Source: an uncultured Bacteroidota bacterium (GTDB lineage: Bacteria > Bacteroidota > Ignavibacteria > UBA10030 > UBA6906). Taken from it: a stretch of 64,000 nt of DNA. The notes under the pieces were generated by a model. That model ran no database searches and was not told the origin of the DNA. It saw only the letters and a list, made by a program, of their open reading frames with translations. Made by a program: the position numbers and the translations under genes. Shown piece after piece: positions 22,314 through 62,807 of the stretch. Positions within the stretch are counted from its first letter, which is position 1. Each line of letters starts with the position of its first letter. The DNA lies in the NCBI GenBank assembly GCA_963809695.1, contig CAWEKI010000001.1:21018-85017 (forward strand), read 5' to 3'.

Positions 22314-22328
22314 AATACCCCCCAGCAT

Positions 22329-22961: not shown

Positions 22962-23056
22962 GGTGGCTATCTCCTTCTCGTTAGACTGCCCATATAGATA
23001 TACAACGGACGAGGCGTTTTTTCGAACAGGAATGAAGAAAAAGTCGTCGTCGTCTT

Positions 23057-23116: not shown

Positions 23117-23231
23117 TGGATGAAGGTAGAAAGTGCCATCCCTTGCGAAAAGCATTGGTTTTCGATATCTTGCTTCCTCCATCGCGTGATTTGCAGCAGC
23201 GGATCCCACTCCCAGCCGGAGGTACCCAACT

Positions 23232-27420: not shown

Positions 27421-27503
27421 GCGGAAGTGGCGAAATTGGCAGACGCACCATCTTGAGGGGGTGGCGCCCAAAAGGCATGCGGGTTCAAGTCCCGCCTTCC
27501 GCA
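27421..27503 (+). tRNA. tRNA-Leu (anticodon GAG), type II with long variable arm
   Basis: Acceptor GCGGAAG/CTTCCGC, anticodon stem CCATC/GGTGG with loop TTGAGGG, long variable arm, T-arm GCGGG-TTCAAGT-CCCGC. Confidence 0.85.
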
Positions 27504-27850
27504 CGAAAACGACCTCTCTAACCCCTTGTCAATCAAGGGGTTATTTGTTTTTCTCCCAGAAGGCGGGACTCTCTATGCGCCCCTGGTCCTGCCTCCGCAC
27601 GTGTCGGATCATCCAATCATTTCTCCGTCTAGGTCCTTTTCGTTCCCGCCATTCCTTCGTTGGGTCTTTGCTCCATGGGTGAGGGAAGGGAGACATCCGG
27701 TACGGCTCAACCAGTATGCTCGAGTGATTGCAGTAACGCCGGATCCCTGTCCACCTGTTACATGGCAGCCTCGGGCGACATGTTCATCGGCAGCGGGAGG
27801 TGATCGCTCGTAGGGCATCCTTGGAAAAGGTTCTGCACCGATACGAGCGA
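27481..27850 (+). repeat. tRNA-Leu 3'-end + terminator + ~350-bp flank module (copy A1)
   Basis: Diverged copies at 61684-62060 (A2), 46310-46410 (partial A3) and 62232-62300 (tRNA-3'/terminator-like). Shared motifs: ttcaagtcccgccttccgca, aaccccttgtcaatcaaggggttatttgttt, ctgtccacctgttacatgg, gctcgtagggcatcc. Confidence 0.6.
27520..27552 (+). terminator. rho-independent terminator after tRNA-Leu
   Basis: aacccctt-gtcaatc-aaggggtt hairpin followed by atttgttttt. Confidence 0.6.
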
Positions 27851-28514
27851 CGGCCGGGGATGATTGGGAACACGGGGTTGCTTCTATATCCCTAAGCGCT
27901 GGTCCTTATGTGGATAATGCCGACGTAGGGCCTCATCCTTGGTGCCTAAAGGCCAACGCAGCGTGGGTTGGCGGTCCATATCTCACATTTGCGGGTCCTA
28001 TTCCTGAAGAAGCTTGAACACCCCGCGTGCAAAGGCGCATCGCGTCGTTCCCTGGAGTATCTCCGCTTCTGCCCGGTAGGCATTACCATGCTTGTCTACG
28101 AACCAAGCGTTGACCGTGAGCGGTGTGAGTAGGGGTGTCGTGACGAAATAGCGAACATCCAACCTGCCCGTCAAAGGGTTGCCGCCGTACAGATCATGCA
28201 ACAGTCACACCATGGCGCTATCCAGGATTGTTGCCACGATCCCTCCCAGAGCGATGCCTTCATATCCTTTGAAGCGTTTGTCAATCGTAACCATGGTGGG
28301 CGCGGGTCTACGTGTGTTCGGGGTCTTTCTTGACCCCCGATTCTGCCGATTCATTCTCCAATTCCGCACCTGCACGACGTTTGCCTCTTTTCTCCCATTC
28401 CATTACCTTGGTGTACTTGCCTCGCCAAATGGCCCTATACATGATGGCCGCGCTGATCAACGGTCCAGCCGGTTCGTTGTAGCTGTTGCAGGCGAGAATA
28501 TAAGGAAAATCAGG

Positions 28515-30575
28515 ATGGACGTGACTCAACCAGGCGAATCAAAAGGCTCTCTCCCAGTCGTAAGTGATGACTTGTCGGCACGCAAGAAGGATCTGACCGG
28601 AGAAGACGAAAGGTCGACTGGATTGGAGGGGAGCCTGGAGGCGCGGCTGGAGTTTGAGATGTTGCTCACCGATCTTTCTGCCCGCTTTGTGAATATCCCC
28701 TCTGAGCGTATCGACAGTGAGATTGAGGATGCCGAGCGTCGCATTTGCGAATTCCTTGCCATTGATGTTGCGACGCTTTGGCAGTGGGAGGAAGTTGCGT
28801 CGGGTGCCTTCGCGTTGACCCACCTCTTCAACGCCAATGGAGATCAGGCCCCGCCAGAACGCAGGATTGATGCGATATATCCCTGGGCCCGGCAACAAAT
28901 GCTGCTCGGCCGCGTGGTTGCTTTTTCGTCTCCAAACGATCTGCCGCCCGAGGCAGCCCGCGACCGCGAATCCCTCCAACGTTTCGGCATCAAGTCAGGT
29001 TTGATACTTCCTCTCTCGGTAGGGGGTGGAGCGACCATCGGGATCTTCGGTCTTGAAACAGTGCGAGCGGAGCGTGACTGGCCGGACGATTTGAAAAAGC
29101 GGTTGCAGTTAGTTGCACAGGTCTTTGCTAATGCCCTGGCGCGAAAGCGCGCAGATCAGGCGTTGATTGACAGTGGCGAGCAATTGGCTCTGGCTGCCGA
29201 GGCAGGGGAAGTCGGCATCTGGGTGCGAGATTATACTCACAACCGAATCTTGGGATCGGAAAAATGGCATCGACTGTTCGGGTTTCCCCCTGGTTCCGAG
29301 GTGAGTCTCGACGATTTTATGCAGCGGATTCACGCAGATGACCATGAACAGGTGGAGCGGGCGATTCTACGCACTATGAAGGAGCGCGTTGATTATGCAG
29401 CAGAATTCCGCCTGGTTCTACCCGATGGAAGGATGCGTTGGATCATGTCCCGTGGGCGGATTCAGGAGGCCGCAAATGGGAAACCGCCCCGTATGTTGGG
29501 AGCAGCAATTGACATCACCGAACGCAAACTGTTGGAGGGACAGCTCATTGATCACCTCCAAGAGATCGAGGAGCTCAAGCAGCGCGTCGAACAAGAGAAC
29601 ACCTATCTGCAGGAAGAGATCGGGCTTCTGGTTGAACACGCGGATATTGTGGGGAAGAGTGCAGCTATCAAGCAGGTTCTCGTTCGGGCAAGCCAGGTGG
29701 CCGGGACAGATGCGACGGTCCTCCTGATGGGCGAGACCGGTACGGGAAAAGAACTACTCGCGAGGGCGATCCACAAGATGAGCCGCCGGAAAGAACGCAC
29801 CCTGGTGACAGTTAACTGCGCCTCGCTACCAGCCACACTGATCGAAAGCGAACTCTTTGGCCGTGAAAAGGGAGCCTACACGGATGCACTGACGAAAATG
29901 GTTGGGAGGTTCGAGCTTGCAGACGGGTCAACGCTTTTTCTCGATGAGATTGGCGAAGTTCCTCTTGAGGTACAGTCCAAGCTCCTGCGCGTCCTCGAGG
30001 AAGGACAGTTTGAACGATTGGGCTCCACAAAGACACTGCATGCGAACGTCCGCATCATTGCTGCCACAAACCGGGATCTCGGGCGGTTTGTGCAGGAAGG
30101 CAAATTTCGGCAAGACCTTTACTACAGGTTGAATGTTTTCCCCCTTGTCGTCCCACCGCTCCGCGAACGGCCGGAGGATATCCCGCTTCTGGTCTGGACC
30201 TTTGTCAGAGAGTTTGAGATGAAGATTGGCAAGCGGATCGATCGCATTTCCAGCAAGTCCATGGATTCCATGCAACGTTACCCCTGGCCGGGCAATGTCA
30301 GGGAATTGAGGAATATGATCGAACACGGGATGATTGTGAGCACCGGTAACACCCTCACGGTGAACTTGCCTCAAGATGACCTTTCAGGAAAAAACAAAGC
30401 TTCAGACCTTGACAGTATTGAACGAAGTCATATACTCAAGGTTCTGACAGGGTCCGGCTGGCGTATCGGCGGCAAAAGCGGGGCGGCAGAGGTCTTGGGA
30501 CTGCAAAGAACTACACTTCAGTCGCTGATGAAAAGACTCGGAATCAAACGTCCCCTCCCCGGGGGACGGCAATAA
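28515..30575 (+). CDS. sigma54-dependent transcriptional activator (enhancer-binding protein) with N-terminal GAF/PAS sensory domains
   Basis: AAA+ sigma54-interaction domain (GETGTGKE, ESELFGREKGAYT, GAFT-equivalent region). C-terminal Fis-type HTH. ATG 28515 chosen by colinearity with the paralog at 46943. Confidence 0.85.
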   Translation: MDVTQPGESKGSLPVVSDDLSARKKDLTGEDERSTGLEGSLEARLEFEMLLTDLSARFVNIPSERIDSEIEDAERRICEFLAIDVATLWQWEEVASGAFALTHLFNANGDQAPPERRIDAIYPWARQQMLLGRVVAFSSPNDLPPEAARDRESLQRFGIKSGLILPLSVGGGATIGIFGLETVRAERDWPDDLKKRLQLVAQVFANALARKRADQALIDSGEQLALAAEAGEVGIWVRDYTHNRILGSEKWHRLFGFPPGSEVSLDDFMQRIHADDHEQVERAILRTMKERVDYAAEFRLVLPDGRMRWIMSRGRIQEAANGKPPRMLGAAIDITERKLLEGQLIDHLQEIEELKQRVEQENTYLQEEIGLLVEHADIVGKSAAIKQVLVRASQVAGTDATVLLMGETGTGKELLARAIHKMSRRKERTLVTVNCASLPATLIESELFGREKGAYTDALTKMVGRFELADGSTLFLDEIGEVPLEVQSKLLRVLEEGQFERLGSTKTLHANVRIIAATNRDLGRFVQEGKFRQDLYYRLNVFPLVVPPLRERPEDIPLLVWTFVREFEMKIGKRIDRISSKSMDSMQRYPWPGNVRELRNMIEHGMIVSTGNTLTVNLPQDDLSGKNKASDLDSIERSHILKVLTGSGWRIGGKSGAAEVLGLQRTTLQSLMKRLGIKRPLPGGRQ

Positions 30576-30690
30576 GACCACGCTGCCGAAATGTCGGCAC
30601 GAGTCTGAAGTTATTCTCACTCTCCACGTTGCTCCCGCCATAAACACCCCCAAAGAGTGCGTTTTTCGTGCAGATCTCTCAGACCTTCTC

Positions 30691-30705
30691 TGGCATGATT
30701 CTCGC
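30691..30705 (+). promoter_or_regulatory. candidate sigma54 (-24/-12) promoter upstream of ABM gene 1
   Basis: TGGCAT-N5-TCGC with the GG-to-GC spacing of 12 expected for RpoN promoters; 75 bp upstream of the ABM start and downstream of the EBP gene. Confidence 0.4.
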
Positions 30706-30780
30706 CGCTTGGTCTCTAGTGTCGAGAGATAAGAGAAGGCTCTCCTTGGGGGAATTCTTCCTTCCCTTCCAGCAAACGAA

Positions 30781-31170
30781 ATGGTTCAATTGCGGTCAAC
30801 ATACCAGTTGGAAGCCAATCAAATGGTTCACACTACGATCAGGATGGAAATGTCTCCGGGAAAAGCAAGGGATGCATTGGAGGTCCTTCGCCCCCTGGCT
30901 GAACGAACCAGAGTCGAGCCCGGATGCATAAGTTGTAGGGTCTATCAAGACGTCCAGCAAGAACATACGATCATGATGGAGGAACTGTGGAGCACCCAGC
31001 AAGAGCTTCGCCGGCATCTCTGCTCTTCGGATTACCAGAGGATCCTCCTGGTGATCGAGATGGCAAAAGGGCAACCTGAGATTAGGTTCAATACGATTTC
31101 ACACTCAAGCGGTTTTGAAACCATAGCTGAGGCAAGAAATCACGATGTGATCGTGGCACACGGCCACTGA
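30781..31170 (+). CDS. ABM (antibiotic biosynthesis monooxygenase)-domain protein
   Basis: Pattern ...VEPGCISCRVYQDVQQEHTIMMEELWSTQQELRRHL... matches the ABM-domain consensus (EPGCL.Y........F...E.W.S.EA...H). Paralog at 49063. Confidence 0.65.
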   Translation: MVQLRSTYQLEANQMVHTTIRMEMSPGKARDALEVLRPLAERTRVEPGCISCRVYQDVQQEHTIMMEELWSTQQELRRHLCSSDYQRILLVIEMAKGQPEIRFNTISHSSGFETIAEARNHDVIVAHGH

Positions 31171-31222
31171 ATGAGAAACCGAATTCAACACACCGGAATA
31201 TAGATAAAGAGGAGAACACACA

Positions 31223-33643
31223 ATGGCACAAGCAAAGGCTGCAGAGAAGAGCTCCACAGGGCGCGTCAAGGCAGATAAAGCACGGATCGACCGGCTGAAA
31301 GAACAGCTCAGGAGCACGCCTGCCGAGGTCGATTTTGAACGCGTCAGGATTATGGCGGAGGTGTACGATGATGCTGCCGGCTATCAGACGATCATCTGTA
31401 GGGCCAAATTCATGGCAACCCTGCTTGAGAGGAAAAAGTTGTACATCGACGAAAATCTCTTTGTGGGCAGCATGGCAAGCACCGTCAATGGCATCTACAC
31501 CTATCCGGAATGGCAAGTGGATTGGATGATAGAGGAGAATACGATTGATGAGAAGTGTAAAACCCCGGAAGACAAGAAGGCCAACAAATGGGCGCTCGAA
31601 TACTGGGAAAAGCGTGCACTGAAGCCCCGCACGCTCGATATATTCGAAAGAAAATATGGTTTTGATCCGCGCCCTTCCTATGCTTCCGGCAATGTCGTTA
31701 GTTTCTTTGACTGGCCCGGTGGCGGAGGCAACCTGAACTATCCCCGGGTTTACAGGGAAGGGCTTGCCAGCATGATCAAAGAGGTAGAGGAGCGCGAGGC
31801 AGCCCTCGAAATGAGACTGCCGAATGCGGACAAGTTCGCCTTCTATGAAGCCAGTCTAATTGTCATGAGAGCCTTTATTCGCCTGGCTCACCGTTATGCT
31901 GAACTGGCAAGGGAGATGGCGGCTAAGGAAAAGGATGCAACCCGTAAGGCGGAGCTGATAGCAATTGCCGAAACCTGCGAATGGGTTCCTGAGCATCCGG
32001 CCCGCAATCTGCGGGAGGCTATGCAGTGCCATTTCTTCTGTCATATCGTTGCAGAAATAGAGCAGGTCGGTTGCGGCTATTCTGAGGCTTATCTGGGCCA
32101 GAATTTAGAGCCGTTCTATCAGGCTGACAAGGCTGCCGGTCTAATTGGATATGACGAGGCAGTCTATATGTTCGAGAACCTCGTCATCAAGCTGAACGAG
32201 ATCGGCTATTACTATGGCGAGAAGGTCGCCTTGCAGAACTCTGCCGACCTGGGTCAGAGCATCACGCTCGGTGGCTATACCGAAGATGGAGATGATGCCA
32301 CCGCTGAAATGGATTATGTGGTCCTGGATGCATGTAACTACCTTCACTTGCCACAGCCTCCACTGAGTTGCTGCTACACGGAGAGAATGAGCGGTAAATT
32401 CCTGGAGAAGGTCCTCGATGTAATAGGCACGGGTATCGGTATGCCTCAGTTCGTCAATGGCGAAGTGATGGTGAAGCGCGCCTTGAATCTCTTTGCAGAC
32501 TCCAAGAAGGGCCTCACACTCGAAAAAGCCAGACGCACCTGCATTGGCGCCTGCGTAGGTTCATACATTCCCTATGAGACAGGACACCCTGTTGAAGGGC
32601 AGCCCAACCTGGGGAAGGTCATCGAGTTGTTGATGAACAATGGCTTCGATCCCCGCACCAAGCAGCAGATCGGACCCAAGACCGGAGATCCCGAGACCTT
32701 CAAGACTTTCGAAGAACTATACGCTGCATTCCAAAAGCAGATCGATTTCAACGAGGAGGTTCTCCGCCGGGGTGCATGGATCGCCAGCATGTTGTGCGCG
32801 GACTTCCTGCCGACAACCTGGCGCTCGCTTCTTACCGGGGGCTGCATTGAAACCGGCACCGAGGTATGGAATGGCGGAGCCAATTACTACACAACTGCGC
32901 AAATCGTTGTCGGTGGTGTTGACGCCGCCAACTCGCTGATGGCGGTGAAAAAGTTGGTCTATGATGACAAAAAGATCACCATGGCCGAGCTGAAAAAGGC
33001 GCTGACTGCCAATTGGGTAGGATACGAGCATGTACGCAAGATGTGCTATGAAGCTCCCAAACATGGCAACGACATTCCTGAAATGAACAAGCTGACTCGT
33101 AAGGTGTTCAATAGTATCTATGAGGCTTTCCAAAAGGTAGATGGTGGTGGAAACTACATCAGCCAGGACATTAAATCAGCGCCTGATGCCTATACCAAGA
33201 GCATCCACAACCTGATGGGACTGGTGACGGGCGCGCTGCCGAACGGTAAATATGCCGGGGTTGCACTCACCGATGGAAGTCTGTCGGCCATGCCGGGAAC
33301 CGATGTCAATGGGCCTACCGCGTTGATTATGTCTGCAGCGAAGAGTCAGGATGCCATTAAGTATACAGCAACACACATGAACATGAAATTCCCGCCCGAT
33401 CAGCTGAAAACACGCAAGGGCCGGGATAACGTGCTGAATCTTATCAAGACCTATTTTGACAATGATGGCTATCACATTCAGTTTAATGTGCTCGATACCA
33501 ACATCCTGAGAGATGCACAGAAGCACCCTGAAAACTACCGTGACCTTGTGGTTCGGGTAGCTGGTTTCAGCGCTTTCTTCACCAAACTGGCCCCGGGTGT
33601 GCAGGAAGAGGTCATTGCCCGTACCTTGCAGAGTTTCAAATAA
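31223..33643 (+). CDS. glycyl radical enzyme (pyruvate formate-lyase fold), 806 aa, with non-canonical active-site loop
   Basis: C-terminal glycyl-radical motif VRVAGFSAFF. The C-terminal ~350 aa are colinear with E. coli PflB. The catalytic loop aligns as IGACVGSY against PflB IACCVSPM: a single Cys, neither the CC of PFL nor the CxE of the eliminases. Confidence 0.85.
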   Translation: MAQAKAAEKSSTGRVKADKARIDRLKEQLRSTPAEVDFERVRIMAEVYDDAAGYQTIICRAKFMATLLERKKLYIDENLFVGSMASTVNGIYTYPEWQVDWMIEENTIDEKCKTPEDKKANKWALEYWEKRALKPRTLDIFERKYGFDPRPSYASGNVVSFFDWPGGGGNLNYPRVYREGLASMIKEVEEREAALEMRLPNADKFAFYEASLIVMRAFIRLAHRYAELAREMAAKEKDATRKAELIAIAETCEWVPEHPARNLREAMQCHFFCHIVAEIEQVGCGYSEAYLGQNLEPFYQADKAAGLIGYDEAVYMFENLVIKLNEIGYYYGEKVALQNSADLGQSITLGGYTEDGDDATAEMDYVVLDACNYLHLPQPPLSCCYTERMSGKFLEKVLDVIGTGIGMPQFVNGEVMVKRALNLFADSKKGLTLEKARRTCIGACVGSYIPYETGHPVEGQPNLGKVIELLMNNGFDPRTKQQIGPKTGDPETFKTFEELYAAFQKQIDFNEEVLRRGAWIASMLCADFLPTTWRSLLTGGCIETGTEVWNGGANYYTTAQIVVGGVDAANSLMAVKKLVYDDKKITMAELKKALTANWVGYEHVRKMCYEAPKHGNDIPEMNKLTRKVFNSIYEAFQKVDGGGNYISQDIKSAPDAYTKSIHNLMGLVTGALPNGKYAGVALTDGSLSAMPGTDVNGPTALIMSAAKSQDAIKYTATHMNMKFPPDQLKTRKGRDNVLNLIKTYFDNDGYHIQFNVLDTNILRDAQKHPENYRDLVVRVAGFSAFFTKLAPGVQEEVIARTLQSFK

Positions 33644-33663
33644 TCTGAAGATCAAGGAAGCTC

Positions 33664-33702
33664 ATGTAAGGCATGGCACTTGGTCATGCCTTACATTTTG
33701 TT
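33664..33702 (+). terminator. rho-independent terminator after the GRE gene
   Basis: Perfect 12-bp inverted repeat atgtaaggcatg ... catgccttacat followed by tttgtt. Confidence 0.6.
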
Positions 33703-33704
33703 CC

Positions 33705-34045
33705 GTCAACACCCTTTCCTGTCCCGCCCAAGCGGGAGCCTTAGTTTCGGGGTTGACTAAGAAGCAGCAGTAGTCATTTCGGGAGAGCGAAGCGACGAAG
33801 CAGTCTCTTATCGGCTCTGGGGTTGCTTCGCCCCGCCAAGGCGGGGCTCGCAGTGACAGGAAAGCAGTCAGATTGTGCGCCAGAGGTTCATCCCTTGGGG
33901 GCTTCGGGCCCACAGGTCCGGTCCTTCGGACCGAGACTCTCGGTCTGAAAGGCCGGAGCAGGCTCGCAATGACAGTTGGAGGACTTTTGGGTCACTCCCG
34001 AAGAGTGTGATTTGAGCGCAACCGAACAGAAGTTAATCAAGGAGG
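33705..34045 (+). promoter_or_regulatory. repeat- and hairpin-rich structured leader upstream of the PFK-like gene (possible cis-regulatory RNA or clustered palindromic elements)
   Basis: Multiple GC-rich hairpins (tcccgc-ccaa-gcggga; ccccgcc-aa-ggcgggg; ggtcc-ttc-ggacc; ccgaga-c-tctcgg) and a twice-repeated ggctcgcaRtgacag motif (33845, 33961). Confidence 0.35.
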
Positions 34046-34051
34046 CACATT

Positions 34052-35224
34052 ATGAGTACGGAAATTGGTCATGGTAGTTTTCTCAGGCGCATTGCTATCA
34101 ATGTTGGCGCCGGCTACGTTCCTGGCATAAATGCCGTTATTACGGGTGCTGCGATGGCGGCCGGTAAAATGGGATGGGAGATGGTCGGTGTTTGCGATGG
34201 GTTTGAAGGTTTACTTCACCCCGAAAAATATCCTGAGGGTGGACTGGTTACACTCAGCCCTCGGCTGATAGAAAATCTTGATCCTTCTGCAGGGGGTATA
34301 CTTGGCCAATCGGTCCGGGTCGATCCGTTTCATGTCCGCACGGTAAACAAAGACGACATGGTGGAAGAAGTGGACATGTCCGATGATCTCTTGAAAAGGC
34401 TGAAGGAAGAAAAGATTGACGGATTGATTTCAGTGGTTGGCGGACTTGGGCTGAGTATTCTCTACAAGCTCCACCGCAAAGGGCTCAATGCGGTGTGCAT
34501 CCCAAGGTCGATCGATAATGATATCGCCTGTACTTCGGTGTCATTCGGATTCAACAGCGCCCTCACCTTCACCATCGAAATGCTGGACCGTGCCCGTCAG
34601 GCGGCCCAGTCTGCACGCAAAATTGCAGTAGTCGAGGTACAGGGAGAGCAGGCTGGATGGATTGCACTCCAGGCAGGTATAGCAGCTTGTGCTGATGTCA
34701 TCATGATCCCCGAGATCCCTGTTGATCTCAAGAATGTGGCACGGAGATTAAAAGATAAGATGTCACCCAGAAGGCCGTACGGGCTTGTTGTGGTGGCCCA
34801 GGGAGCGAAACTTATCAGTCAAACTAAGAAGGAAGGGGCCACATCCTCCCTAAAAGCTACTCTGTCGCCACTGGCTACCGGTGATTCCAGCAGTGAGCAC
34901 GTCATTCAGAGTTCTGGCCAGGCAGCAGAGACTGTGGCAAGAGAACTTCAGCTGCTGATAGCCGAGGAAACCTATCCGCTCGTCATCGGTCCCTGGGTCA
35001 GGGGTGGTACCCCAACTGCTGTCGACCGCCAACTGGGGATGGCGTACGGAGCCGGGGCATTGCAGGCGCTGAAAGCGGGGAAGAATGGAGTAATGGTTGC
35101 TTTTGTTCCTCCTGAAATCAGGTTCGTGCCGCTGGCAGAAGCAATCAACAAAGTCAGAACGGTGTCTGCGGACAGCGAATTCCTGAAGATTGCTCATTCA
35201 CTTGGCATTTATTGTGGAAAATAA
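34052..35224 (+). CDS. phosphofructokinase-fold protein with degenerate catalytic motifs (PFK-like)
   Basis: Colinear with ATP-PFK (PGINAVITGAAMAA ~ PGMNAAIRGVVRAA; IPRSIDNDI ~ LPGTIDNDI; KIAVVEVQG ~ RISVVEVMG). GGDGS is replaced by GGLGL. The MGR fructose-6-P arginine is replaced by QGE. The N-terminal SGGD is replaced by VGAG. Confidence 0.7.
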   Translation: MSTEIGHGSFLRRIAINVGAGYVPGINAVITGAAMAAGKMGWEMVGVCDGFEGLLHPEKYPEGGLVTLSPRLIENLDPSAGGILGQSVRVDPFHVRTVNKDDMVEEVDMSDDLLKRLKEEKIDGLISVVGGLGLSILYKLHRKGLNAVCIPRSIDNDIACTSVSFGFNSALTFTIEMLDRARQAAQSARKIAVVEVQGEQAGWIALQAGIAACADVIMIPEIPVDLKNVARRLKDKMSPRRPYGLVVVAQGAKLISQTKKEGATSSLKATLSPLATGDSSSEHVIQSSGQAAETVARELQLLIAEETYPLVIGPWVRGGTPTAVDRQLGMAYGAGALQALKAGKNGVMVAFVPPEIRFVPLAEAINKVRTVSADSEFLKIAHSLGIYCGK

Positions 35225-35236
35225 GGAGGAAGAATT

Positions 35237-36211
35237 GTGAACAATCAAACAATAAACCCAAGCGATATGACAGGGACGGTGCTGAATATCCAACGATACT
35301 GCAGCCACGACGGTCCGGGCATCCGCACTACCGTCTTCCTGAAGGGTTGCTCGCTGCGCTGCAAATGGTGCGGCAATCCTGAAAGCATCCGGATAAAACC
35401 GGAAATGTCCTACGATTCCAGGAAATGTACGGGCAAGAAGGCATGTGGAGTTTGCCTGAAGTCGCCCTTCCCGGAAGGCGCCTTCTATGTTGTGGAGGGC
35501 GACGATGACAAAGTAAAAGTCAACTGGCATCTGGCCATGGATTGCGACGAGACATTGACATCGCTCTGCCCGACAGGAGCGCTCGAAATGTTTGGCAAAA
35601 AGATGACAGTAAAAGAGGTGTTGGACGAGGTGGAGAAGGATGCTTCCTTTTACCGAAATACAGGGGGTGGAATGACATTGAGTGGCGGTGAGATCATGCT
35701 GCAGCCTGATTTCAGCGCAGGTTTGCTGAAGGAAGCGCACGATCGTGGCTTCAATACGGCCATAGAAACAGCGTGCAACGCTCCATGGCCTTTCCTGGAG
35801 AAGGTGCTGCCCCACGTTGATACGATGCTGCATGACCACAAGCTGACCATCCCGGAGAGGCACAAGAAATGGACCGGCGTGGACAACAAGCGTATACTCG
35901 AGAACTTCAAGAAAGCTTACGAGACGTTTCCCAACATTGACTTCATCGCCCGCACGCCGCTGATTCCCGGCATCAATGCCGATGAGGAACATATACGAGC
36001 AGTGCTGGCGTTCATTCGCCCTCACAAGAACGTGATTGACTATGAGCTGTTGCCGTATCACCGCTTCGGCCTGGGCAAGTACGAATACCTGGGCAAGGTG
36101 TATGAACTGGATGATTACAAAACGCCGTCTGATGAATTGGTTAAACATTTACAGGCCATCATCGACGAGGCCTTCGGCCGAAGTGCCCAGACAGCCGCGG
36201 TCGTGAAATAG
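35237..36211 (+). CDS. glycyl-radical enzyme activating enzyme (radical SAM, PflA family with extra ferredoxin-like Cys clusters)
   Basis: CSHDGPGIRTTVFLKGCSLRCKWCGNPES (PFL-AE signature with CxxxCxxC). Additional CxxCxxC clusters. GTG start preceded by an aaggagga SD-like sequence. Confidence 0.85.
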   Translation: MNNQTINPSDMTGTVLNIQRYCSHDGPGIRTTVFLKGCSLRCKWCGNPESIRIKPEMSYDSRKCTGKKACGVCLKSPFPEGAFYVVEGDDDKVKVNWHLAMDCDETLTSLCPTGALEMFGKKMTVKEVLDEVEKDASFYRNTGGGMTLSGGEIMLQPDFSAGLLKEAHDRGFNTAIETACNAPWPFLEKVLPHVDTMLHDHKLTIPERHKKWTGVDNKRILENFKKAYETFPNIDFIARTPLIPGINADEEHIRAVLAFIRPHKNVIDYELLPYHRFGLGKYEYLGKVYELDDYKTPSDELVKHLQAIIDEAFGRSAQTAAVVK

Positions 36212-36250
36212 GTTCGTGTTCGAGGTCGCAATCTAAGAACCGGGGTATTT

Positions 36251-37390
36251 ATGAGCAATGAGGACAAATCGTTAGATATATACGAACGACTGGCGGCGGC
36301 GCAGGAGGCGCTTCCGCATGGCTTCCCCAGGACGAAATCTGGGGTGGAAATACAGCTGATAAAGATGGCGTTCACACCCGAGGAAGTTTCGCTTGCGGGC
36401 CAGCTGACCCGCTTCCCGGAGACCGCAGCCGATATCGCGAAACGGGTTGGTATGGAGGAAGCCGATGTAACAGCCCTACTCGAGAGTCTGATACCACGAC
36501 GGCTGGTACGTCTCGACTCAAAGGGGATGGCAGCTCCCGGTATGGTGCCTACAGCCGAAGGCGAGAAAAAGTACCGGCTGGGTCCTTTTCTGGTTGGCTG
36601 GTACGAAGCCAATATGCGGCTGCTGGATAAGGAATTTGCGGAGCTCTTCGAGCAATTCGTGATCGAGGGCGGCGGGGAGAAGATCCTTGCGCCCCGGCCC
36701 GGCGTGCTGGGCGTTGTACCTGTGCGCGGCTCTCTGAAACCTGAGCTGATGGCGGCTATGGAGCCCCACCTGGATATCGATGCCCATTTCAAACGCCACG
36801 AGCGTTTTCTCGTGATCCCCTGTGTGTGCAAAAAGGAGCGGGAGGATCTGGGGCACTTCGACTGCAAGTTCCCCATGAAACGATGTGGGTTTGTAGGATT
36901 GCCACCTCACACCCCGCTCTCAGAAACCGTGCTTGACAGGGAGGAGGCGAACAAGCTCCTTTATGAACTTGAGGAGATGGGACACGTTCACCTTGCGTTT
37001 TACGGATACACAATGGGAGCGGATATACCTCAGTTTGTAGGCACCTGTAACTGCGATGGCTGTTGCTGTGGGGTATTGCACGGACAGAAACTCTCCGGCA
37101 TATCGGAAGGGGCGCAACGGTCGAACTACCGCGCTGTCATCGATCCAGAGAAGTGCATTTCCTGCGGCGTGTGCCAGGGGCGTTGCCCGGTGGACGCCAT
37201 CGCTGATGATGAGAATGGCAAGTCGAATGTGGAACGGGCAAAGTGCATCGGTTGTGGTGTGTGCGTGATCGGATGTGTAAGCGTTGCGATCGAGATGCTG
37301 CCGGTATCAAAGGAGGAGTGGTTCCATGTGCCTTCCAGCATGGCGGAATGGGAGGAGAGGCGCCTGGAGTATTTGGCAGCGCAGAAGTAG
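36251..37390 (+). CDS. Cys-rich iron-sulfur protein with two C-terminal 4Fe-4S ferredoxin motifs (possible GRE-associated electron-transfer / accessory protein)
   Basis: CISCGVCQGRCP and CIGCGVCVIGC ferredoxin motifs. Additional Cys clusters CVCKK...C..C and CNCDGCCCG. N-terminal helical, HTH-like region. Confidence 0.55.
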   Translation: MSNEDKSLDIYERLAAAQEALPHGFPRTKSGVEIQLIKMAFTPEEVSLAGQLTRFPETAADIAKRVGMEEADVTALLESLIPRRLVRLDSKGMAAPGMVPTAEGEKKYRLGPFLVGWYEANMRLLDKEFAELFEQFVIEGGGEKILAPRPGVLGVVPVRGSLKPELMAAMEPHLDIDAHFKRHERFLVIPCVCKKEREDLGHFDCKFPMKRCGFVGLPPHTPLSETVLDREEANKLLYELEEMGHVHLAFYGYTMGADIPQFVGTCNCDGCCCGVLHGQKLSGISEGAQRSNYRAVIDPEKCISCGVCQGRCPVDAIADDENGKSNVERAKCIGCGVCVIGCVSVAIEMLPVSKEEWFHVPSSMAEWEERRLEYLAAQK

Positions 37391-38202: not shown

Positions 38203-38249
38203 CCGGCTGCAGTAAGTCAACAGGGAACGCGAAATTCAGGAGGATATTC

Positions 38250-42076: not shown

Positions 42077-42089
42077 TCGGCAACCGTGA

Positions 42090-42869: not shown

Positions 42870-42881
42870 GGAGAATGTCCC

Positions 42882-44567
42882 ATGAAAGTCATCATCGTTG
42901 GTGGAGTAGCCGGGGGTGCGTCGTGTGCGGCGCGTCTGCGCAGACTGGAGGAGAAGGCTGAAATCGTCCTCGTGGAACGCGGACCGTATGTCTCATACGC
43001 GAACTGCGGCCTTCCGTACCATGTCGGGGGTTCGATCGAGCAAGAGGGGAGCCTCCTGGTGGCGACGGAGGAGATGTTCCGGGCAGTGTTCGCGGTTGAT
43101 TGCCGAACGAACTGCGAGGTGGTCGGGATCTCGGCAAAGGCGAAAACAGTGGACCTGAAGAACACCCAAACGGGTACAGTCACGACAGAGAAATATGACA
43201 AGCTTGTGCTTTCCCCCGGTGCGGCGCCGATCCGCCCGCCGCTTCCCGGTATCGACCTTCCGGGCGTGTTCTCTGTGAGAACCGTGCCTGACGCACGTGA
43301 GATCCGCCAGTGGCTTGACCGGGACTCGGACCGTTCCGTAGGGAATCCCTTCACAGGCGTCGACACGGTGTCGAAGCCAAAACATGCGGTAGTGGTCGGA
43401 GGAGGGTTCATTGGTCTGGAGATGGTCGAAAACTTCGTGGACCGCGGGCTTGGTGTCACGCTCTTGGAGAAGCTCGATCAGGTCATGCCGCCGCTCGATC
43501 CCGAAATGGCGCGCCTGGTGGAGCGCTACCTGGTCAGGCACGGCGTTCAGCTTGTGCTCAATGATGGTGTTGCCGGATTCCGTAAGCCGGCTGCCGGGGG
43601 GCTGGAAGTCATGACGGAATCAGGCAAGGCCTTCCCGGCGGACATCGTGATCCTGGCCATCGGTGTGCGTCCGGAAACCGCGCTGGCGAAGATGGCTGGC
43701 ATCGAGATCGGGAAGCGGGGCGGGATTCGGGTCGATGAGCAAATGCGTACGTCCGATCCGGATATCTTTGCCGTCGGCGATGCGGTGGAAGTCAAGGACT
43801 TTGTGACAGGACAGTGGACGCTCATCCCGCTCGCCGGGCCGGCAAATCGCCAAGGGCGGATTGTCGCTGACGTGATCGCCGGCCGCACATCCCGATTCCG
43901 GGGGACGCAGGGAACCTCGATCTGCAAGCTCTTCGATGCGGCGATCGCTCAGACCGGCGTCAGCGAGAAAATGCTGAAGCAGCTGGGTGACGCCGATTAC
44001 GAGAAGATCTATCTCTACCCGAACTCGCACGCGGGGTACTACCCGGGTGCCAAGCTGCTCCCCATGAAGGTCATATTCCGGAAGTCGAACGGTCGGCTCC
44101 TCGGGGCGCAAGTGCTTGGCGAGGATGGGGTCGCCAAACGGATCGATTCCTTTGCCATGGCGATCCAGATGGGGTGCACGATCTACGACCTGGAGGAATC
44201 GGAGTTGAGTTACGCGCCGCCGTTCGGCAGTGCCAAGGACCCGGTGAACTTCGCGGGCATGGTCGCGGCCGATATTCTCCGGGGCGACATGCCGATCACC
44301 CACTGGGAGTCGTTGAATGGCGCTTTCCTGCTTGATGTACGGAATCCGCAGGAAGTGGACGCTGAGGCGGTTCCTGGCGCGGTCAACATCCCGCTGCCTC
44401 AACTCCGCGCCCGCTTGGGTGACCTTCCCCGCGATCGGGAAATCAACATTATTTGTCGATCGGCGGTGCGAGCCTATTTTGCGACGCGGATTCTCCTGCA
44501 AAGTGGGTTCAAGGCAAAGAATATTTCCGGCGGCATGCTGGCACGGTCGCATTGTACCGGGGATTGA
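42882..44567 (+). CDS. CoA-disulfide reductase family flavoprotein with C-terminal rhodanese domain (CoADR-RHD / NADH-dependent persulfide reductase-like), copy 1
   Basis: FAD motif VIIVGGVAGGAS; redox Cys in SYANCGLPYHVGG; NAD(P) motif VVVGGGFIGLE; C-terminal rhodanese with active Cys (ICRSAVRAY). Confidence 0.8.
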   Translation: MKVIIVGGVAGGASCAARLRRLEEKAEIVLVERGPYVSYANCGLPYHVGGSIEQEGSLLVATEEMFRAVFAVDCRTNCEVVGISAKAKTVDLKNTQTGTVTTEKYDKLVLSPGAAPIRPPLPGIDLPGVFSVRTVPDAREIRQWLDRDSDRSVGNPFTGVDTVSKPKHAVVVGGGFIGLEMVENFVDRGLGVTLLEKLDQVMPPLDPEMARLVERYLVRHGVQLVLNDGVAGFRKPAAGGLEVMTESGKAFPADIVILAIGVRPETALAKMAGIEIGKRGGIRVDEQMRTSDPDIFAVGDAVEVKDFVTGQWTLIPLAGPANRQGRIVADVIAGRTSRFRGTQGTSICKLFDAAIAQTGVSEKMLKQLGDADYEKIYLYPNSHAGYYPGAKLLPMKVIFRKSNGRLLGAQVLGEDGVAKRIDSFAMAIQMGCTIYDLEESELSYAPPFGSAKDPVNFAGMVAADILRGDMPITHWESLNGAFLLDVRNPQEVDAEAVPGAVNIPLPQLRARLGDLPRDREINIICRSAVRAYFATRILLQSGFKAKNISGGMLARSHCTGD

Positions 44568-56586: not shown

Positions 56587-57774
56587 ATGACAGACGCAAA
56601 AGTGAAAGCGACGACGTTCGAAAATACGAAAATGAGCGTTGTCCCATTGAAATGGAACGAGGTGTATTACACCAACTGTCCGCTCGTGTCCGCCAGCAAT
56701 GTGGACCAGGAACTCGGCTGGACCAGAGAGGAGTTCAAGAAGATCGGCGTGAAGTACGCCTTTATGCGCTCCGCCCGCGAGAACGACTGGTACCCGCACT
56801 ACATCCATAACCTCGACAACCTCATTCGTTTCGGCGGTTTATTCCCGCCCATCCATGTTCACGCCGACATCCGCCGGACCAGGCTCCTGGGGGTGACGCA
56901 TGTATACGAAGGCGGCGTAATGCTGGTGCGCTCCAGGGACAAGATCTACCGGATGACCGATCTGAAAGGAAAGAAGATCGGCCTCTCGAAGAGCATGAAC
57001 ACCATCAAGACCGACTGGTGGCGCATCCAGGAGGAACAAGGCATCGAGCTTATGCTCATGATGAACGGCATGACCCGCAAGGACGTCGAGATCGTTGAGT
57101 TCCCCTACCCGGATGACTGGTACAACGATGCCAGGATGCTGGATCCTATGGAAAACCCATCTGAACTCTGGCTTAAGCGTGATCACAAGCGCGACCTGGC
57201 CTTCCGTCCATTGGAGACGGCCCTGGAAAAGGGCGTGGTCGATGCCGTCTATAGCCAAAGCAAAGTCTTGAGTGTTCTCTCAGAGGCAACAGGCAAGTTC
57301 AAGGCGATCGAGGACCTGTCCCGGTATCCGGACTGGACCCTGCAGGTGGCCAATGTCCCCGCCGTCATCACCTGTACGGACGTCATGGCCGAGAAACATC
57401 CCGAGCTGGTCGTCGCGTTCATGAAGGGCATGATTAAGGTGGGGCGCTGGGCCAACGAGAACAAGCACGCTGCGGCCGCGATCCTCGACAAGCAAACGTT
57501 CTATTTAGACGTCGAAGATACGTACAGAGGCATCAAAAACATCGACATGGTGCCCAACCTGTCGCCCCAGAACCTGGTCTCCGTTGAGATCGGGAAAGAC
57601 TTTATGCTGAGTCACGGATATATCAAGCACGACTTCGAAGTACAGAAGTGGGCCGCGCCGGAGTTCCTCGAACGGGCAGCCAGAGAATTGTTGGAAGAAC
57701 AATGGAAAAAGGTGACCACGTCAAAGCTTCCCGAGACGGCTTCGCCTCTGGCATCTGGAGATCGGCTCGGGTAG
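56587..57774 (+). CDS. SBP-fold protein (SsuA/NMT1/THI5-like), candidate DszB-type sulfinate desulfinase homolog
   Basis: No signal peptide. YTNCPLVSA (cf. DszB YSNCPVP with catalytic Cys), RFGGLFPPI (cf. RFGGEIPPL), RRTRLLGVT, C-terminal QKWAAPEFL (cf. DszB QWAAPEFL). Comparison is to DszB recalled from memory. Confidence 0.4.
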   Translation: MTDAKVKATTFENTKMSVVPLKWNEVYYTNCPLVSASNVDQELGWTREEFKKIGVKYAFMRSARENDWYPHYIHNLDNLIRFGGLFPPIHVHADIRRTRLLGVTHVYEGGVMLVRSRDKIYRMTDLKGKKIGLSKSMNTIKTDWWRIQEEQGIELMLMMNGMTRKDVEIVEFPYPDDWYNDARMLDPMENPSELWLKRDHKRDLAFRPLETALEKGVVDAVYSQSKVLSVLSEATGKFKAIEDLSRYPDWTLQVANVPAVITCTDVMAEKHPELVVAFMKGMIKVGRWANENKHAAAAILDKQTFYLDVEDTYRGIKNIDMVPNLSPQNLVSVEIGKDFMLSHGYIKHDFEVQKWAAPEFLERAARELLEEQWKKVTTSKLPETASPLASGDRLG

Positions 57775-61683: not shown

Positions 61684-61709
61684 ACGGGATTCAAGTCCCG
61701 CCTTCCGCA
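61684..61709 (+). other. fossil tRNA-Leu 3' fragment (T-arm + acceptor 3' strand), part of module copy A2
   Basis: cgggattcaagtcccgccttccgca matches the last ~23 nt of tRNA-Leu(27421-27503). Followed at 61734-61764 by a copy of the same terminator hairpin (aacccctt-gtcaatc-aaggggtt-atttgttt). Preceded by an 18-bp bulged hairpin (61635-61683). Confidence 0.55.
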
Positions 61710-62807
61710 CAAAACCTCTTCTCTAACCCCTTGTCAATCAAGGGGTTATTTGTTTGGCCCCCAGAAGTCCGGACTCTCTGTGCGCCCTTGATCCCGCCCT
61801 CCAAATCGTTACATCACGCAACCGCTTCTCCCTCGAGGTGATATTCCTATTGGCTGATCCTTCGTTCGGAATTTGCTGCATGGGCTATAGAAGGGAGACT
61901 CCTGAAGACTGAATCATCATCTGCAAGTGATTCCCATTGTTCCTGAACCATGTCCATCTGATAAACGGAATCCTTCGATGACATCCTCATCTGCCCGTGG
62001 AATCGGTCGCTTGTAGGGCATCGTCGGAAGAAATTCCGACTCCACGTGGCGACAGAAGAGCCGCCCGGCTCACGATGAACTGAGAGCACGAGCGGTCTTT
62101 GTGTTTCGACATCAATCGCTGCGTCCGTATCGGTACCTTGACGTGGGAAAGAGATGCATCAGATACAAGAGATGGAAGCTGCCATTTGGCGAAAGCCGGG
62201 AAATTCCGCTCCATGCGCAAATGATCTTTGGTTCGAGTCCTGCTCGCGGAGCGAGAATCCCCTTGGTAACACAAGGGGATTTTCATTTCTATTTCGGGGT
62301 GTACCCTTATCTGTACCCCTGACGTATCGACCTGTACCCTTCATTCGATTGATACAAACTGAAACGTACCAAATCCATTTAAAAAAGGCCAGATAAGGGT
62401 TCACCGACCGTTTCGCCGTCCCGATCCGAAGGATCGGGACGAGCCTCGTCCCTCCACCGAAGGTGGAGGGACGGGAGTCCGGCCTGCCCGCCGAAACTGA
62501 TTCACAAGTGCAGGCGGGCTCGCGGACCTGCTCGACTCGCCCCACCAAAGCCAATGGTGGGGCGATTTTTTTGGTGGGGCTCACTCGCGGCTCCTTCGGA
62601 ACCCCGCCACAATCCGATGTTGAGTACATCCTTCGCTATCATGTCATTATTACACTGATGGGTAAAAATGCCACCAGGGTATTGTTCACGGGGCATATTT
62701 CAGCCCTGTTGGTCCAAATCCGCATCTGGCATGAATCATGCGCTGTTCACAATGCCGAATAGGACAATAGTGCGGAAGGACATCTGAGAACAAAAGGACT
62801 CCGGGCA

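Follow-up and report, generated by a model that had tools for sequence, protein, structure and literature searches.

We report here a gene module built around a glycyl radical enzyme (GRE) in a stretch of 64,000 nucleotides (nt), called the window below, from an uncultured Bacteroidota bacterium (GenBank assembly GCA_963809695.1, contig CAWEKI010000001.1, positions 21,018 to 85,017). On the whole, the analysis shows a predicted three-gene module, which consists of the GRE, a pseudo-kinase with the phosphofructokinase (PFK) fold and a GRE-activating enzyme, and which is extended in the window by an ABM-domain protein upstream and a winged-helix iron-sulfur (Fe-S) protein downstream. The GRE very probably stands for a new non-eliminase family with the pseudo-PFK as obligate partner. 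The best explanation overall, put forward tentatively and falling just short of probable, is an anoxia-induced, uncharacterised GRE class that performs base-independent radical chemistry, perhaps on an anionic organosulfur substrate. The fold of the GRE, its activation and the sigma54 control are of already known kinds; the make-up of the active site, the pseudo-PFK as conserved partner and a gene-specific conserved stem-loop appear to be undescribed. The elements of the operon and its control region are the following:

28179..30575, + strand: sigma54-dependent activator (bacterial enhancer-binding protein, bEBP), with GAF, PAS_3, Sigma54_activat (E 7e-69) and AAA_lid_14 domains and a C-terminal DNA-binding region
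30588..30603, + strand: candidate upstream activator site, palindrome TGCCGAAATGTCGGCA, lying ~100 nt before the -24 element
30691..30706, + strand: predicted sigma54 -24/-12 promoter, TGGCATGATTCTCGCC, of the form TGGCAT-N5-TCGCC, with correct GG-N10-GC spacing
30781..31170, + strand: ABM-domain protein (PF03992, E 2e-13), first operon gene, start possibly at 30823
31223..33643, + strand: GRE of 806 aa, with predicted radical site Gly781 and thiyl site Cys444, from Pfam domains, motifs and PDB alignments
33664..33696, + strand: predicted intercistronic RNA stem-loop with a 14-bp stem and an invariant GGC...GCC core, 20 nt past the GRE stop
33697..34051, + strand: genome-specific spacer with extra GC-rich hairpins and two copies of GGCTCGCARTGACAG (a duplicated 15-mer), lacking in other loci
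34052..35224, + strand: PFK-fold pseudo-kinase of 390 aa (PF00365, E 2e-62, whole profile), below every NCBIfam PFK cut-off
35237..36211, + strand: GRE-activating radical S-adenosylmethionine (SAM) enzyme of 324 aa (TIGR02494, 320 bits against a cut-off of 174), with a CX3CX2C motif
36251..37390, + strand: winged-helix, Cys-rich 2x[4Fe-4S] protein of 379 aa, with a dicluster ferredoxin domain at residues 295-349

The preliminary description of this DNA, read from its letters, had named a GRE with a bona fide radical C-terminus, an ABM gene behind a predicted sigma54 promoter and a PAS/GAF sigma54 activator, a catalytically degenerate PFK fold, a downstream activase and a Cys-rich dicluster ferredoxin protein, and all of these assignments are borne out by the matches listed above together with the family-wide evidence given below.

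The GRE is matched by PF02901 over residues 20-639 (E 5e-144) and by PF01228, the C-terminal glycyl radical domain, over residues 686-787 (E 2e-29) in Pfam. Gly781 lies within VRVAGFSAFF, an RVxG[FWY] motif, and is invariant across the family, while Cys444 lies within IGACVGSY and aligns with the catalytic Cys of HypD, glycerol dehydratase (GD), the arylacetate decarboxylase AAD, PDB entry 9rco and MasD. Family signatures are WPGGGGNLNY (164-173), QVGCGYS (containing C284), GACVGSY (442-448) and Lys659. In the alignment of 51 intact members from many phyla, 41% of the positions are invariant, among them the whole loop [IV]GACVGSY.PYETGHPVEGQPN, where PYETGHPVEGQPN denotes the 20 residues after Cys444, and more than 500 database clusters have 77-90% identity to the GRE. 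By its sequence the protein is thus predicted to be a genuine, intact GRE of the PFL-like division under strong selection. The family is extremely conserved and meanwhile breaks the active-site rules of the clade in which it sits.

Its distance from every characterised GRE is considerable. The best match in a phmmer search of all PDB chains is HypD (E 3e-125, 422 bits, about 30% identity), followed by glycerol and diol dehydratases, CutC and N-methyl-hydroxyproline dehydratases, then AAD with 336 bits, BssA and MasD with 273-278 bits, and pyruvate formate-lyase (PFL) with 76 bits; no match exceeds 30-33% identity among the solved or characterised GREs. The protein passes no equivalog or subfamily model of NCBIfam, with scores against cut-offs of 482/1100 bits for HypD, 422/1000 for HpsG, 391/1050 for CutC, 478/678 for the PFL2-3 subfamily, 435/1100 for IAD, 349/1150 for HPAD and 82/994 for the formate lyase model TIGR01255. 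The AlphaFold2 (AF2) model superposes end to end on GRE structures (Foldseek; TM 0.78-0.80, 25-30% identity), with HypD, PD and GD at 30% identity, which is read as a fold assignment only, with a mean predicted local distance difference test score (pLDDT) of 64 from a shallow alignment and values below 50 at residues 164-170, 282-285 and 440-460. With HypD, GD and PD the GRE thus shares the 10-stranded barrel, the RVAGxS Gly loop, the Cys loop in the same place and a TIGR02494-type activase; it differs from them by its identity of about 30% and by the extra PFK-like gene between enzyme and activase. The family is not mentioned in the literature found, including a 2026 GRE review (PMC13450708) and a 2024 paper on aminoacyl radical enzymes, relatives of the GREs that carry another residue in place of the radical Gly, and the review lists no class with this loop or with a PFK-like partner. 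The earlier proposal of an undescribed GRE system is therefore strengthened by the absence of any passed curated model, of any match above 30-33% and of any entry in the review, together with a gene order kept across phyla; that proposal had been staked, among other things, on there being no hit above 60% identity to a characterised GRE of known function with the same loop, and the closest solved structure, HypD, stands at 30%. Three loci with PFK-like neighbours (L074, L079, L081) seemed at first to form a sister clade at 53% identity; this was rejected, since they are frameshifted long-read assemblies of the same family with the same motifs. Among the 50%-identity cluster representatives, one (P0272, 36% identical to the GRE) has Ala aligned with the radical Gly and may belong to the alanyl radical enzymes described of late.

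The active site is where the family departs most clearly from its relatives. In HMMER searches with the full-length protein and with the loop segment, ACVG of the GRE aligns opposite GCVE of HypD, glycerol dehydratase and 9rco, GCVL of AAD and ACMS of MasD. A shift in register that would restore a CxE or CC motif was considered and is excluded, because five independent HMMER alignments concur in this placement. The reading of the loop as IGACVGSY without CC and without CxE, already made in the preliminary description, is hence confirmed: the position of the CxE Glu is taken by Gly446, invariant in the 51 members, and Ala443-Cys444 stands where formate lyases have CC. Residues of HypD that contact the substrate or are essential (PMC7077986) were mapped onto the GRE through the phmmer alignment, as follows:

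HypD His160: GRE Gly169, the final Gly of the invariant WPGGGGNLNY (HypD APGH opposite GGGG)
HypD Asp278 (beta1): GRE Cys284, within the invariant QVGCGYS
HypD Ser334: GRE Ser340
HypD Asp339 and Phe340: deleted in the GRE
HypD Glu436: GRE Gly446
HypD Tyr450: GRE Gln460
HypD Thr645 (beta8): GRE Lys659

In HypD, H160, D278 and E436 are each essential, and Asp278 contacts the substrate (PMC7077986). Both C284 and K659 are invariant in the 51 intact members, and no solved GRE carries a Cys at the C284 position. The loop has one Cys, as had been described; the active site as a whole, on the contrary, has a second invariant Cys in C284 at the HypD Asp278 position, so that the label 'single Cys' holds for the loop only. 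Likewise, the review lists no GRE class with this loop, in agreement with what had been noted, whereas the lack of the Glu is nothing new in itself: PFL and benzylsuccinate synthase (BSS) have CxS and PhdB has CxQ (PMC7079210), AAD is also without it, and among the 134 nearest 50%-identity cluster representatives many different residues occupy the Glu position. The loop alone is therefore not unique, because PFL, BSS, PhdB, AAD and many uncharacterised relatives also do without the Glu. All the GRE eliminases and isomerases (HypD, GD, PD, CutC, IslA, HpsG, HplG, YbiW, PflD) keep CxE (PMC13450708). The second Cys, without the Glu, is found in P0241 (52% identity to the GRE), P0242 (45%) and P0244, P0245 and P0246 (about 40%); it is ambiguous in P0247 and lacking in more distant relatives, so that it is confined to the GRE family and its nearest relatives. 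The distinguishing mark of the family is accordingly Gly at both the Glu and the His position combined with a second invariant Cys. Ketyl-type 1,2-elimination should be impossible for such a site, because the acid/base Glu and His are both Gly, and the GRE is predicted to be neither an eliminase nor a formate lyase. The proximity of C284 to C444 is taken from homology, because the AF2 model is unreliable there.

We then present an overall view of the module across genomes. A scan with one genome per GTDB species gave 130 matches, of which 80, being 72-94% identical, were kept, and with two exact look-ups these make 82 loci; counts out of 82 below are the tblastn presence of the window proteins in these loci. 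The metagenome-assembled genomes carrying the module are labelled as Bacteroidales, Chloroflexia, Acidobacteriota, Holophagales, Planctomycetes/Pirellulales, Verrucomicrobiota, Kiritimatiellia, Actinomycetes, Nitrospiraceae, Ignavibacteriota, Calditrichia, Hydrogenedentes and alpha-, beta-, gamma- and delta-proteobacteria, spanning more than a dozen phyla, and come mostly from Danish soil and sediment, lakes and activated sludge. The PFK-like protein is present in 76/82 loci and the activase in 71/82, the missing ones being mostly contigs broken off or frameshifted; the Fe-S protein is in 33/82, ABM in 13/82 and the full-length sigma54 activator in 11/82. The neighbourhood search proposed earlier therefore finds the PFK-like and activase partners kept in nearly all loci. 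In 45 of 48 intact loci the genes follow one another as GRE, PFK-like, activase. The median gap is 112 nt from GRE to PFK-like and -4 nt, i.e. a stop/start overlap, from PFK-like to activase (45 loci), and the PFK-like gene appears more tightly coupled to the activase than to the GRE. The preliminary description had called the separation of GRE and activase atypical; the separation is there, and since the gene order is near-universal in related loci it is a trait of the whole family rather than a peculiarity of the window. With median pairwise identities of 76% for the GRE, 65% for the PFK-like protein and 75% for the activase in the same loci, the GRE seems to evolve more slowly than its partners. 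Horizontal spread of the GRE class is part of the best explanation given at the outset.

The PFK-like protein belongs to a large family (3207 matches) that is routinely annotated as 6-phosphofructokinase. It matches PDB PFKs with E 2e-32 and scores 244/431 and 225/253 bits against the NCBIfam PFK cut-offs. When 82 members are aligned with E. coli PfkA (from NC_000913), catalytic, Mg-binding and 6-phosphate-binding residues are seen to be replaced throughout: D12 by F/Y/H, the Mg-binding D103 by G/N/M/A and never D, G104 by Q/R/K and R171 by E/A (these four in 82/82), and, among the ligands of the 6-phosphate of fructose 6-phosphate, R243 by Y/F and H249 by P, with Arg21, Arg25 and Arg54 of the effector site also replaced throughout. 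G124 is replaced by R/K. Kept are the GxGxxPGxN loop, Arg72, Ser/Thr125, the catalytic base as Asp/Glu127, Asn128, Asp129 and, of the 6-phosphate ligands, Arg252, while R162 is Lys. With the Mg/ATP-site residues lost family-wide, canonical phosphoryl transfer is very unlikely, while some of the sugar-side pocket and the glycine-rich loop survive and may form a ligand site. Ligand binding or scaffolding is the likely role. The regulatory alpha subunit of the plant pyrophosphate-dependent PFK likewise keeps a PFK fold in non-catalytic form; that subunit pairs with an active PFK, whereas the present protein pairs with the enzymes of a radical system and has no gene for an active PFK beside it. 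A dead phosphofructokinase is a partner type never reported for a radical enzyme.

The Fe-S protein, of a large family with 72-91% identity, has the eight ferredoxin Cys and in addition nine more invariant or near-invariant Cys in mid-protein. Its N-terminal ~90 residues are well modelled and match winged helix-turn-helix domains of MarR/SmtB type; the AF2 model has an overall pLDDT of 61, is poor outside the N-terminus and is taken as a fold assignment only. Its probable role is to supply the activase, as a dedicated donor, with low-potential electrons, and a redox-sensing regulator is a candidate alternative.

Between the GRE and PFK-like genes a conserved RNA element is found. A strong hairpin follows right behind the GRE stop in nearly all of 39 folded spacers (median z = -4.6), and 55 of 76 loci have a perfect stem measuring 10 bp or more. 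In 58 of 79 sequences the core GGCRYGNC-N3-9-GNCRYGCC is found no further than 250 nt past the RVAGFSA codons, and elsewhere it turns up only 6 times in 1.58 Mb. When 41 copies are aligned, 95.5% of the cells pair, a percentage inflated by the choice of copies that form the hairpin; the covariation and the positional specificity are unaffected by that choice. Compensatory changes are seen in 10 of the 14 pairs, the doubly changed cells number 78 against 26 ± 4 in shuffles (none of 500 shuffles reaches 78), and sliding the partner columns abolishes the pairing. Because G-U pairs are common at one stem position, the element would be an RNA on the sense strand and not a DNA operator. It has no Rfam match, and many GC-rich versions are without a U-tract. 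The 'strong terminator' of the preliminary description is thus right as to the hairpin and needs correction as to its nature, which is a module-wide conserved RNA stem-loop that often has no U-tract in GC-rich hosts. Our reading is an intra-operon attenuator or 3'-end stabiliser which sets a high ratio of GRE to activase. The intercistronic hairpins of the Rhodobacter puf operon and repetitive extragenic palindromic (REP) elements are alike in that a stable stem-loop separates an upstream gene needed in abundance from downstream genes of low need; the difference is that here different phyla share the stem sequence GGCRTGRC...GYCAYGCC itself, and that the element goes with a single gene family.

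What follows the stem-loop in the window is of another kind. The 408-nt spacer from GRE to PFK-like folds better than shuffles (z = -4.7), and a hairpin-rich leader of about 340 bp had been proposed for it. We do not retain this leader, either as a riboswitch or as a conserved leader: there is no Rfam match to E 1, the usual spacer is ~112 nt, and the ~350 nt in question are specific to the genome of the window and look like palindromic repeats. The segment 33697-34051 looks like inserted palindromic repeat elements. An antisense open reading frame (ORF) in the spacer (33662-33913, - strand) reads ...DCFVASLSRND..., a string which we take to be typical of translated palindromic repeat elements, none of which was identified here.

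As for regulation, the true start of the bEBP is probably near 28512, and the protein passes no NCBIfam equivalog. Homologous sigma54 activators stand upstream in 11 loci, with partial matches in others, and ABM lies directly upstream of the GRE in 13/82 loci, always with a sigma54 activator. The site at 30691-30706 has three mismatches to TGGCAC-N5-TTGCW and alone is not above chance; a strict consensus scan of the window for RpoN sites shows no enrichment of matches with at most two mismatches. In the 12 ABM-bearing regions (11 loci and the window), however, a GG-N10-GC site that matches the consensus at 8 or more of 11 positions lies at most 200 nt upstream of ABM in all 12, where chance would give ~0.05 per region. 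The promoter is therefore supported because it is conserved across loci and not by the consensus scan, which leaves the earlier prediction standing with a site that is a weak match by itself. Palindromes at -106 to -116 from the -24 element are found in five of the 12 regions and are suggestive only as activator sites. A 180-aa protein without a Pfam or NCBIfam match occupies the ABM slot directly upstream of the GRE in L007 (9263-9805), in 12 other Bacteroidales-type loci and in L001, from the cultured Flavihumibacter profundi (9335-9925). Loci without the sigma54 set carry pairs of GAF-histidine kinase and LuxR regulators (DosS/DosR-like) or PAS-LuxR regulators, and the nearest outgroup, P0241, also sits behind a sigma54 activator. 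Induction of the module by anoxia or redox conditions is moderately probable, and it fits because the sensors are of the redox/oxygen/small-ligand type and an oxygen-labile enzyme would need such induction.

The genes around the operon suggest a link to sulfur. In the window, + strand genes with short gaps form an unbroken run from 28.2 to 45.6 kb, and the same-strand neighbours outside the core are:

37450-44567, + strand: DUF2490 protein, GH63/MGH1-like hydrolase, glucose-dehydrogenase-like protein, MIP channel, and coenzyme A disulfide reductase (CoADR)-rhodanese fusion
42882..44567, + strand: CoADR-like flavoprotein with rhodanese domain (Pyr_redox_2, Pyr_redox_dim, Rhodanese), second copy at 50793-52478
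52364-53371 and 53457-54581, + strand: SBF/BASS-type transporters (SBF in 35/82 loci)
54604-56406, + strand: SulP-STAS anion transporter (SulP in 24/82 loci; DauA model 168 bits, below cut-off)
56587..57774, + strand: DszB-like (sulfinate desulfinase-like) protein of 395 aa, matching PDB 2de2 (DszB) over both halves with E 1e-10

Recurrent neighbours were sought by clustering the flanking ORFs and by searches with the island genes of the window. The most frequent one outside the core is the DszB-like protein (46/82 loci, ~74% identity across phyla), which abuts the module in several loci. DszB, the 2'-hydroxybiphenyl-2-sulfinate desulfinase, has a periplasmic-binding-protein fold, and its catalytic Cys27 with His60, Arg70 and Gly73 are identical in the neighbour (YYTNCP; PHY...RFGG), which thus keeps the complete catalytic set; DszB is all that it matched in the PDB, and as far as could be found it is an uncharacterised family. 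The CoADR-rhodanese protein scores 464 bits against the TIGR03385 cut-off of 579 and is present in 39/82 loci, with the L002 copy directly upstream of the GRE. Other same-strand neighbours are a stand-alone rhodanese (12-25/82), GH63 with the glucose-dehydrogenase-like gene (14/82) and SAM synthetase (11-14/82). Similar contexts are found outside the family itself. P0242 (Glu-less, with the second Cys) occurs twice in tandem, with an activase gene on one side and, on the other, an ABC transporter whose binding protein passes the SsuA sulfonate model (190.9 bits against 163.5), and the adjoining GRE is HpsG (1370 against 1000); P0244 (40% identity, Glu-less, with the second Cys) adjoins a TauE sulfite-exporter gene and a sigma54 activator, and the neighbourhood of P0246 is uninformative. 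Three separate branches of the Glu-less, second-Cys clade hence sit with sulfonate, sulfinate or sulfite genes, which is guilt by association. The GREs of known organosulfonate loci, IslA/IseG and HpsG, are alike in occurring with sulfite handling, and a genuine HpsG shares the locus with P0242; they differ in keeping CxE, in acting on hydroxy-sulfonates and in being 25-28% identical to the GRE. The sulfonate clamp of the known GRE C-S lyases consists of two Arg and one Gln.

Two observations stand beside these contexts. The metagenome contigs L085 (836-12199) and L086 carry a sulfonate locus with three GREs, namely two tandem 790-aa Glu-less proteins with a CVS loop and the second Cys, 45% identical to the GRE of the window, and a third that is a genuine HpsG. 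An SsuA-type ABC transporter lies between these GREs, and two activases accompany them; the tandem pair is another uncharacterised GRE family. In the window, the GH63/MGH1-like hydrolase, the glucose-dehydrogenase-like protein of the medium-chain dehydrogenase/reductase type and the MIP channel lie in one run at 38250-42869, which may be a catabolic unit for a glycoside, perhaps glucosyl- or sulfoquinovosyl-glycerol or -glycerate.

Based on these results, the following mechanism is proposed. Under low oxygen or reducing conditions the GAF-PAS sensor would turn the operon on. The activase would cleave SAM and install the radical on Gly781, with electrons probably coming from the Fe-S protein, while the stem-loop would end or stabilise the GRE message, so that the GRE is made in excess over the translationally coupled PFK-like protein and activase. 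Gly781 would hand the radical to Cys444, which would then attack the substrate. A pocket with C284, K659 and the glycine-rich loop would suit a small anionic substrate and a base-independent step, for which radical beta-scission, thiyl addition and a two-cysteine redox step are the candidate chemistries. The substrate may be a sulfonate or sulfinate without the hydroxyl that CxE enzymes need, and its sulfur would leave as sulfite or sulfinate to be handled by the DszB-like desulfinase, the CoADR-rhodanese protein and the anion transporters. The PFK-like protein would act as a non-catalytic partner, ligand-sensing or scaffolding, of the activase and/or the GRE. That the substrate is an organosulfur compound, judged from the gene neighbours, is a serious possibility which we hold to be somewhat less than probable, and any specific substrate named now would very likely be wrong.

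Several points weigh against this explanation. Instead of forming a pathway, the sulfur-related neighbours might have been carried along as co-regulated cargo on a mobile 'anoxia island'; the CoADR-like protein does not reach the equivalog cut-off, and the substrates of the SBF and SulP transporters are not readable from sequence. The regulators are of the redox/oxygen-sensing type (GAF/PAS) and not of the sulfur-starvation type (CysB, SsuR). The AF2 models of the GRE and of the Fe-S protein are poor in the relevant regions, and the role given to the PFK-like protein is a guess. Moreover, the pairwise identities of GRE and PFK-like protein are barely correlated (r = 0.10, 21 loci), a value which is uninformative and gives no support to tight co-evolution of the two.

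The other explanations differ mainly in how they account for the two cysteines and for the neighbours. A PFL-like 2-oxoacid lyase serving the fermentative survival of soil aerobes in anoxia, in which Cys444 would relay the radical to C284 in the role of PFL Cys418, the acyl group would pass to coenzyme A (CoA) and the CoADR would keep CoA reduced, is rather unlikely. It would make sense of the two invariant Cys in the predicted active site, of the very slow evolution and wide spread typical of central metabolism, of regulators of the hypoxia-sensing type, and of the CoADR-like gene in 39/82 loci, including its place in L002, and Lys659 with the Gly-rich loop could bind a carboxylate; PFL and TdcE are also alike in having two cysteines and in being anoxia-induced in facultative organisms. 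The similarity is distant, however (76 bits against 422 for HypD; TIGR01255 82 against 994), the two cysteines are not an adjacent CC as in PFL but 160 residues apart, on the beta1 strand and in the Cys loop, the recurrent neighbours include no gene for a formate channel, formate dehydrogenase, phosphotransacetylase or acetate kinase, and the DszB-like, rhodanese and TauE/sulfonate contexts would go unexplained. The same cysteines could instead serve a reductase in the manner of class III ribonucleotide reductase, with a C284-C444 disulfide or a thiol cosubstrate regenerated by the CoADR-rhodanese protein from NAD(P)H. An invariant second Cys opposite the thiyl Cys, the absence of acid/base residues and a pyridine-nucleotide disulfide oxidoreductase in 39/82 loci, duplicated in the window, agree with it, and reduction of a sulfonate to a sulfinate would feed the DszB-like desulfinase; we nevertheless regard it as decidedly unlikely, as no PFL-like GRE is known as a reductase (PMC13450708), the Cys-Cys distance is not readable from an unreliable region of the AF2 model, and half of the loci lack the CoADR-like gene. 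A decarboxylase of aryl- or alkyl-acetates of the AAD/PhdB type, needing no Glu in the Cys loop, is improbable to a like degree. The loops of the known GRE decarboxylases (HPAD, IAD, PhdB, AAD) are CxE with a second Glu, CxQ or CxL; AAD (GCVL) and PhdB (CxQ) show the Glu to be dispensable, AAD ranks second among the PDB matches of the Cys-loop segment and likewise has no small subunit, Lys659 could hold the carboxylate, and relatives of both DszB and ABM act on aromatics; yet the IAD and HPAD models give 435 against 1100 and 349 against 1150 bits, the similarity is greater to eliminases than to AAD (422 against 336 bits), AAD and PhdB have another residue at the Glu position and another genomic context, the known decarboxylases have no second Cys, no aromatic amino-acid fermentation genes are nearby, and the pseudo-PFK is left unexplained. 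Identity with the acidobacterial toluene-forming PhdB was also considered and rejected, as PhdB has CxQ, Cys482 and Gly815.

An enzyme like the X-succinate synthases, by which a hydrocarbon or another C-H substrate would be added to fumarate and in which the PFK-like protein would stand in for the small subunits, is highly improbable. Benzylsuccinate and alkylsuccinate synthases are alike in having no Glu in the Cys loop (CxS) and in depending on non-catalytic accessory subunits that control activation, and the SulP relatives include the C4-dicarboxylate carrier DauA, whose model, as listed above, is not passed. These subunits, however, are small Fe-S/rubredoxin-like proteins rather than a 390-aa PFK fold, their loop is CMS, and BssA and MasD give only 273-278 bits. 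X-succinate synthases have a fumarate-binding Arg about 15 residues after the Cys; the MasD segment with the sole Arg shortly after the catalytic Cys, presumably the fumarate-binding one, is an insertion absent from the GRE. Neither small Fe-S subunit genes nor beta-oxidation genes for succinate adducts are among the neighbours, and the hosts are not hydrocarbon degraders. Finally, an ordinary hydroxyproline, glycerol or diol dehydratase, beside which the PFK-like gene would be a coincidence or a working glycolytic kinase, is scarcely credible. The best hidden Markov model and PDB matches are to HypD and the glycerol/diol dehydratases, and the source annotations carry these names; the HypD model nonetheless gives 482 against 1100 bits with the essential Glu, His and Asp all replaced, and both coincidence and a working kinase are ruled out because the PFK-like gene co-occurs in 76/82 loci across phyla and has lost D103, D12, R171, R243 and H249 family-wide.

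The organosulfur explanation can be carried one step further, to a new mechanistic GRE class with two Cys, no acid/base residues and an obligate pseudo-PFK subunit, which would perform oxygen-independent C-S cleavage of hydroxyl-less soil organosulfur; in this full form it is unlikely. An attractive version has the pseudo-PFK repurposed from fructose 6-phosphate to a 6-sulfo-sugar (sulfofructose or sulfoquinovose), an idea that comes from the phosphate-binding Arg243 and His249 being now Tyr/Phe and Pro while sugar-side residues are kept, and the GH63 hydrolase, glucose-dehydrogenase-like and MIP genes, present in the window and in ~14 other loci, would feed such a route. If true, more than a dozen phyla would have a direct route for desulfonation under anaerobic conditions. 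Should the organosulfur link be right, the module would allow oxygen-independent mineralisation of part of the large soil organic sulfur pool.

The GREs perform reactions for which there is no other way in the absence of oxygen, and the assignment of each new class has led to a new pathway, as for choline, hydroxyproline, isethionate and anhydroglucitol. The present module occurs in lineages mostly thought aerobic, such as Acidobacteriota, Chloroflexota, Planctomycetota, Verrucomicrobiota, Bacteroidota, Nitrospirota and several proteobacterial classes. Even if the organosulfur link is wrong, the module is a clearly delimited target of three genes that brings its own regulatory RNA element, and it gives a concrete case for how non-catalytic partners control the installation of the glycyl radical.

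The module of the window lies within a larger block next to a tRNA gene, the boundaries of which are:

27421-27504, + strand: tRNA-Leu
27481..27508, + strand: tRNA-Leu 3' end, left direct-repeat copy
61687..61714, + strand: tRNA-Leu 3' end, right copy, 93% identical, putative right boundary of a 34-kb island

The accessory block near tRNA-Leu that had been pointed out earlier is strengthened by this right-hand copy. The ~400 nt after the two repeat copies (27506-27900 and 61711-62100) are 75% identical, and a third partial copy lies at about 46.1-46.5 kb (46100-46520), just before a second sigma54 activator (46781-48922); the repeats look like att-type boundaries. The genes upstream of the tRNA-Leu are housekeeping ones, i.e. 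rho, Mur ligase, dihydroorotate dehydrogenase, thiolase and acyl-CoA dehydrogenase; G+C content, at 0.50-0.59 inside the island, is only slightly below the 0.55-0.60 of the core, and no integrase domain is found in the island ORFs scanned. The region between 27.5 and 61.7 kb has the look of an old tRNA-linked island, possibly a composite one, which agrees with the cross-phylum distribution of the module. Inside it, the CoADR-rhodanese paralogues at 42869-43635 and 50780-51546, 7.9 kb apart, have 83% nucleotide identity over the first 300 nt and then 70%, and stem from a duplication within the island. Besides, two arrays of an 11-nt unit (GGTCTGACCCT-like) are seen at 22318-22381 and 23051-23125, beginning directly after tRNA-Lys (22241-22313) and recurring 730 nt on. 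In the core upstream of the island, 14578-20553 encodes a sensor histidine kinase of 1991 aa that has several PAS and GAF domains, and the gene of a response regulator comes next (20556-21236).

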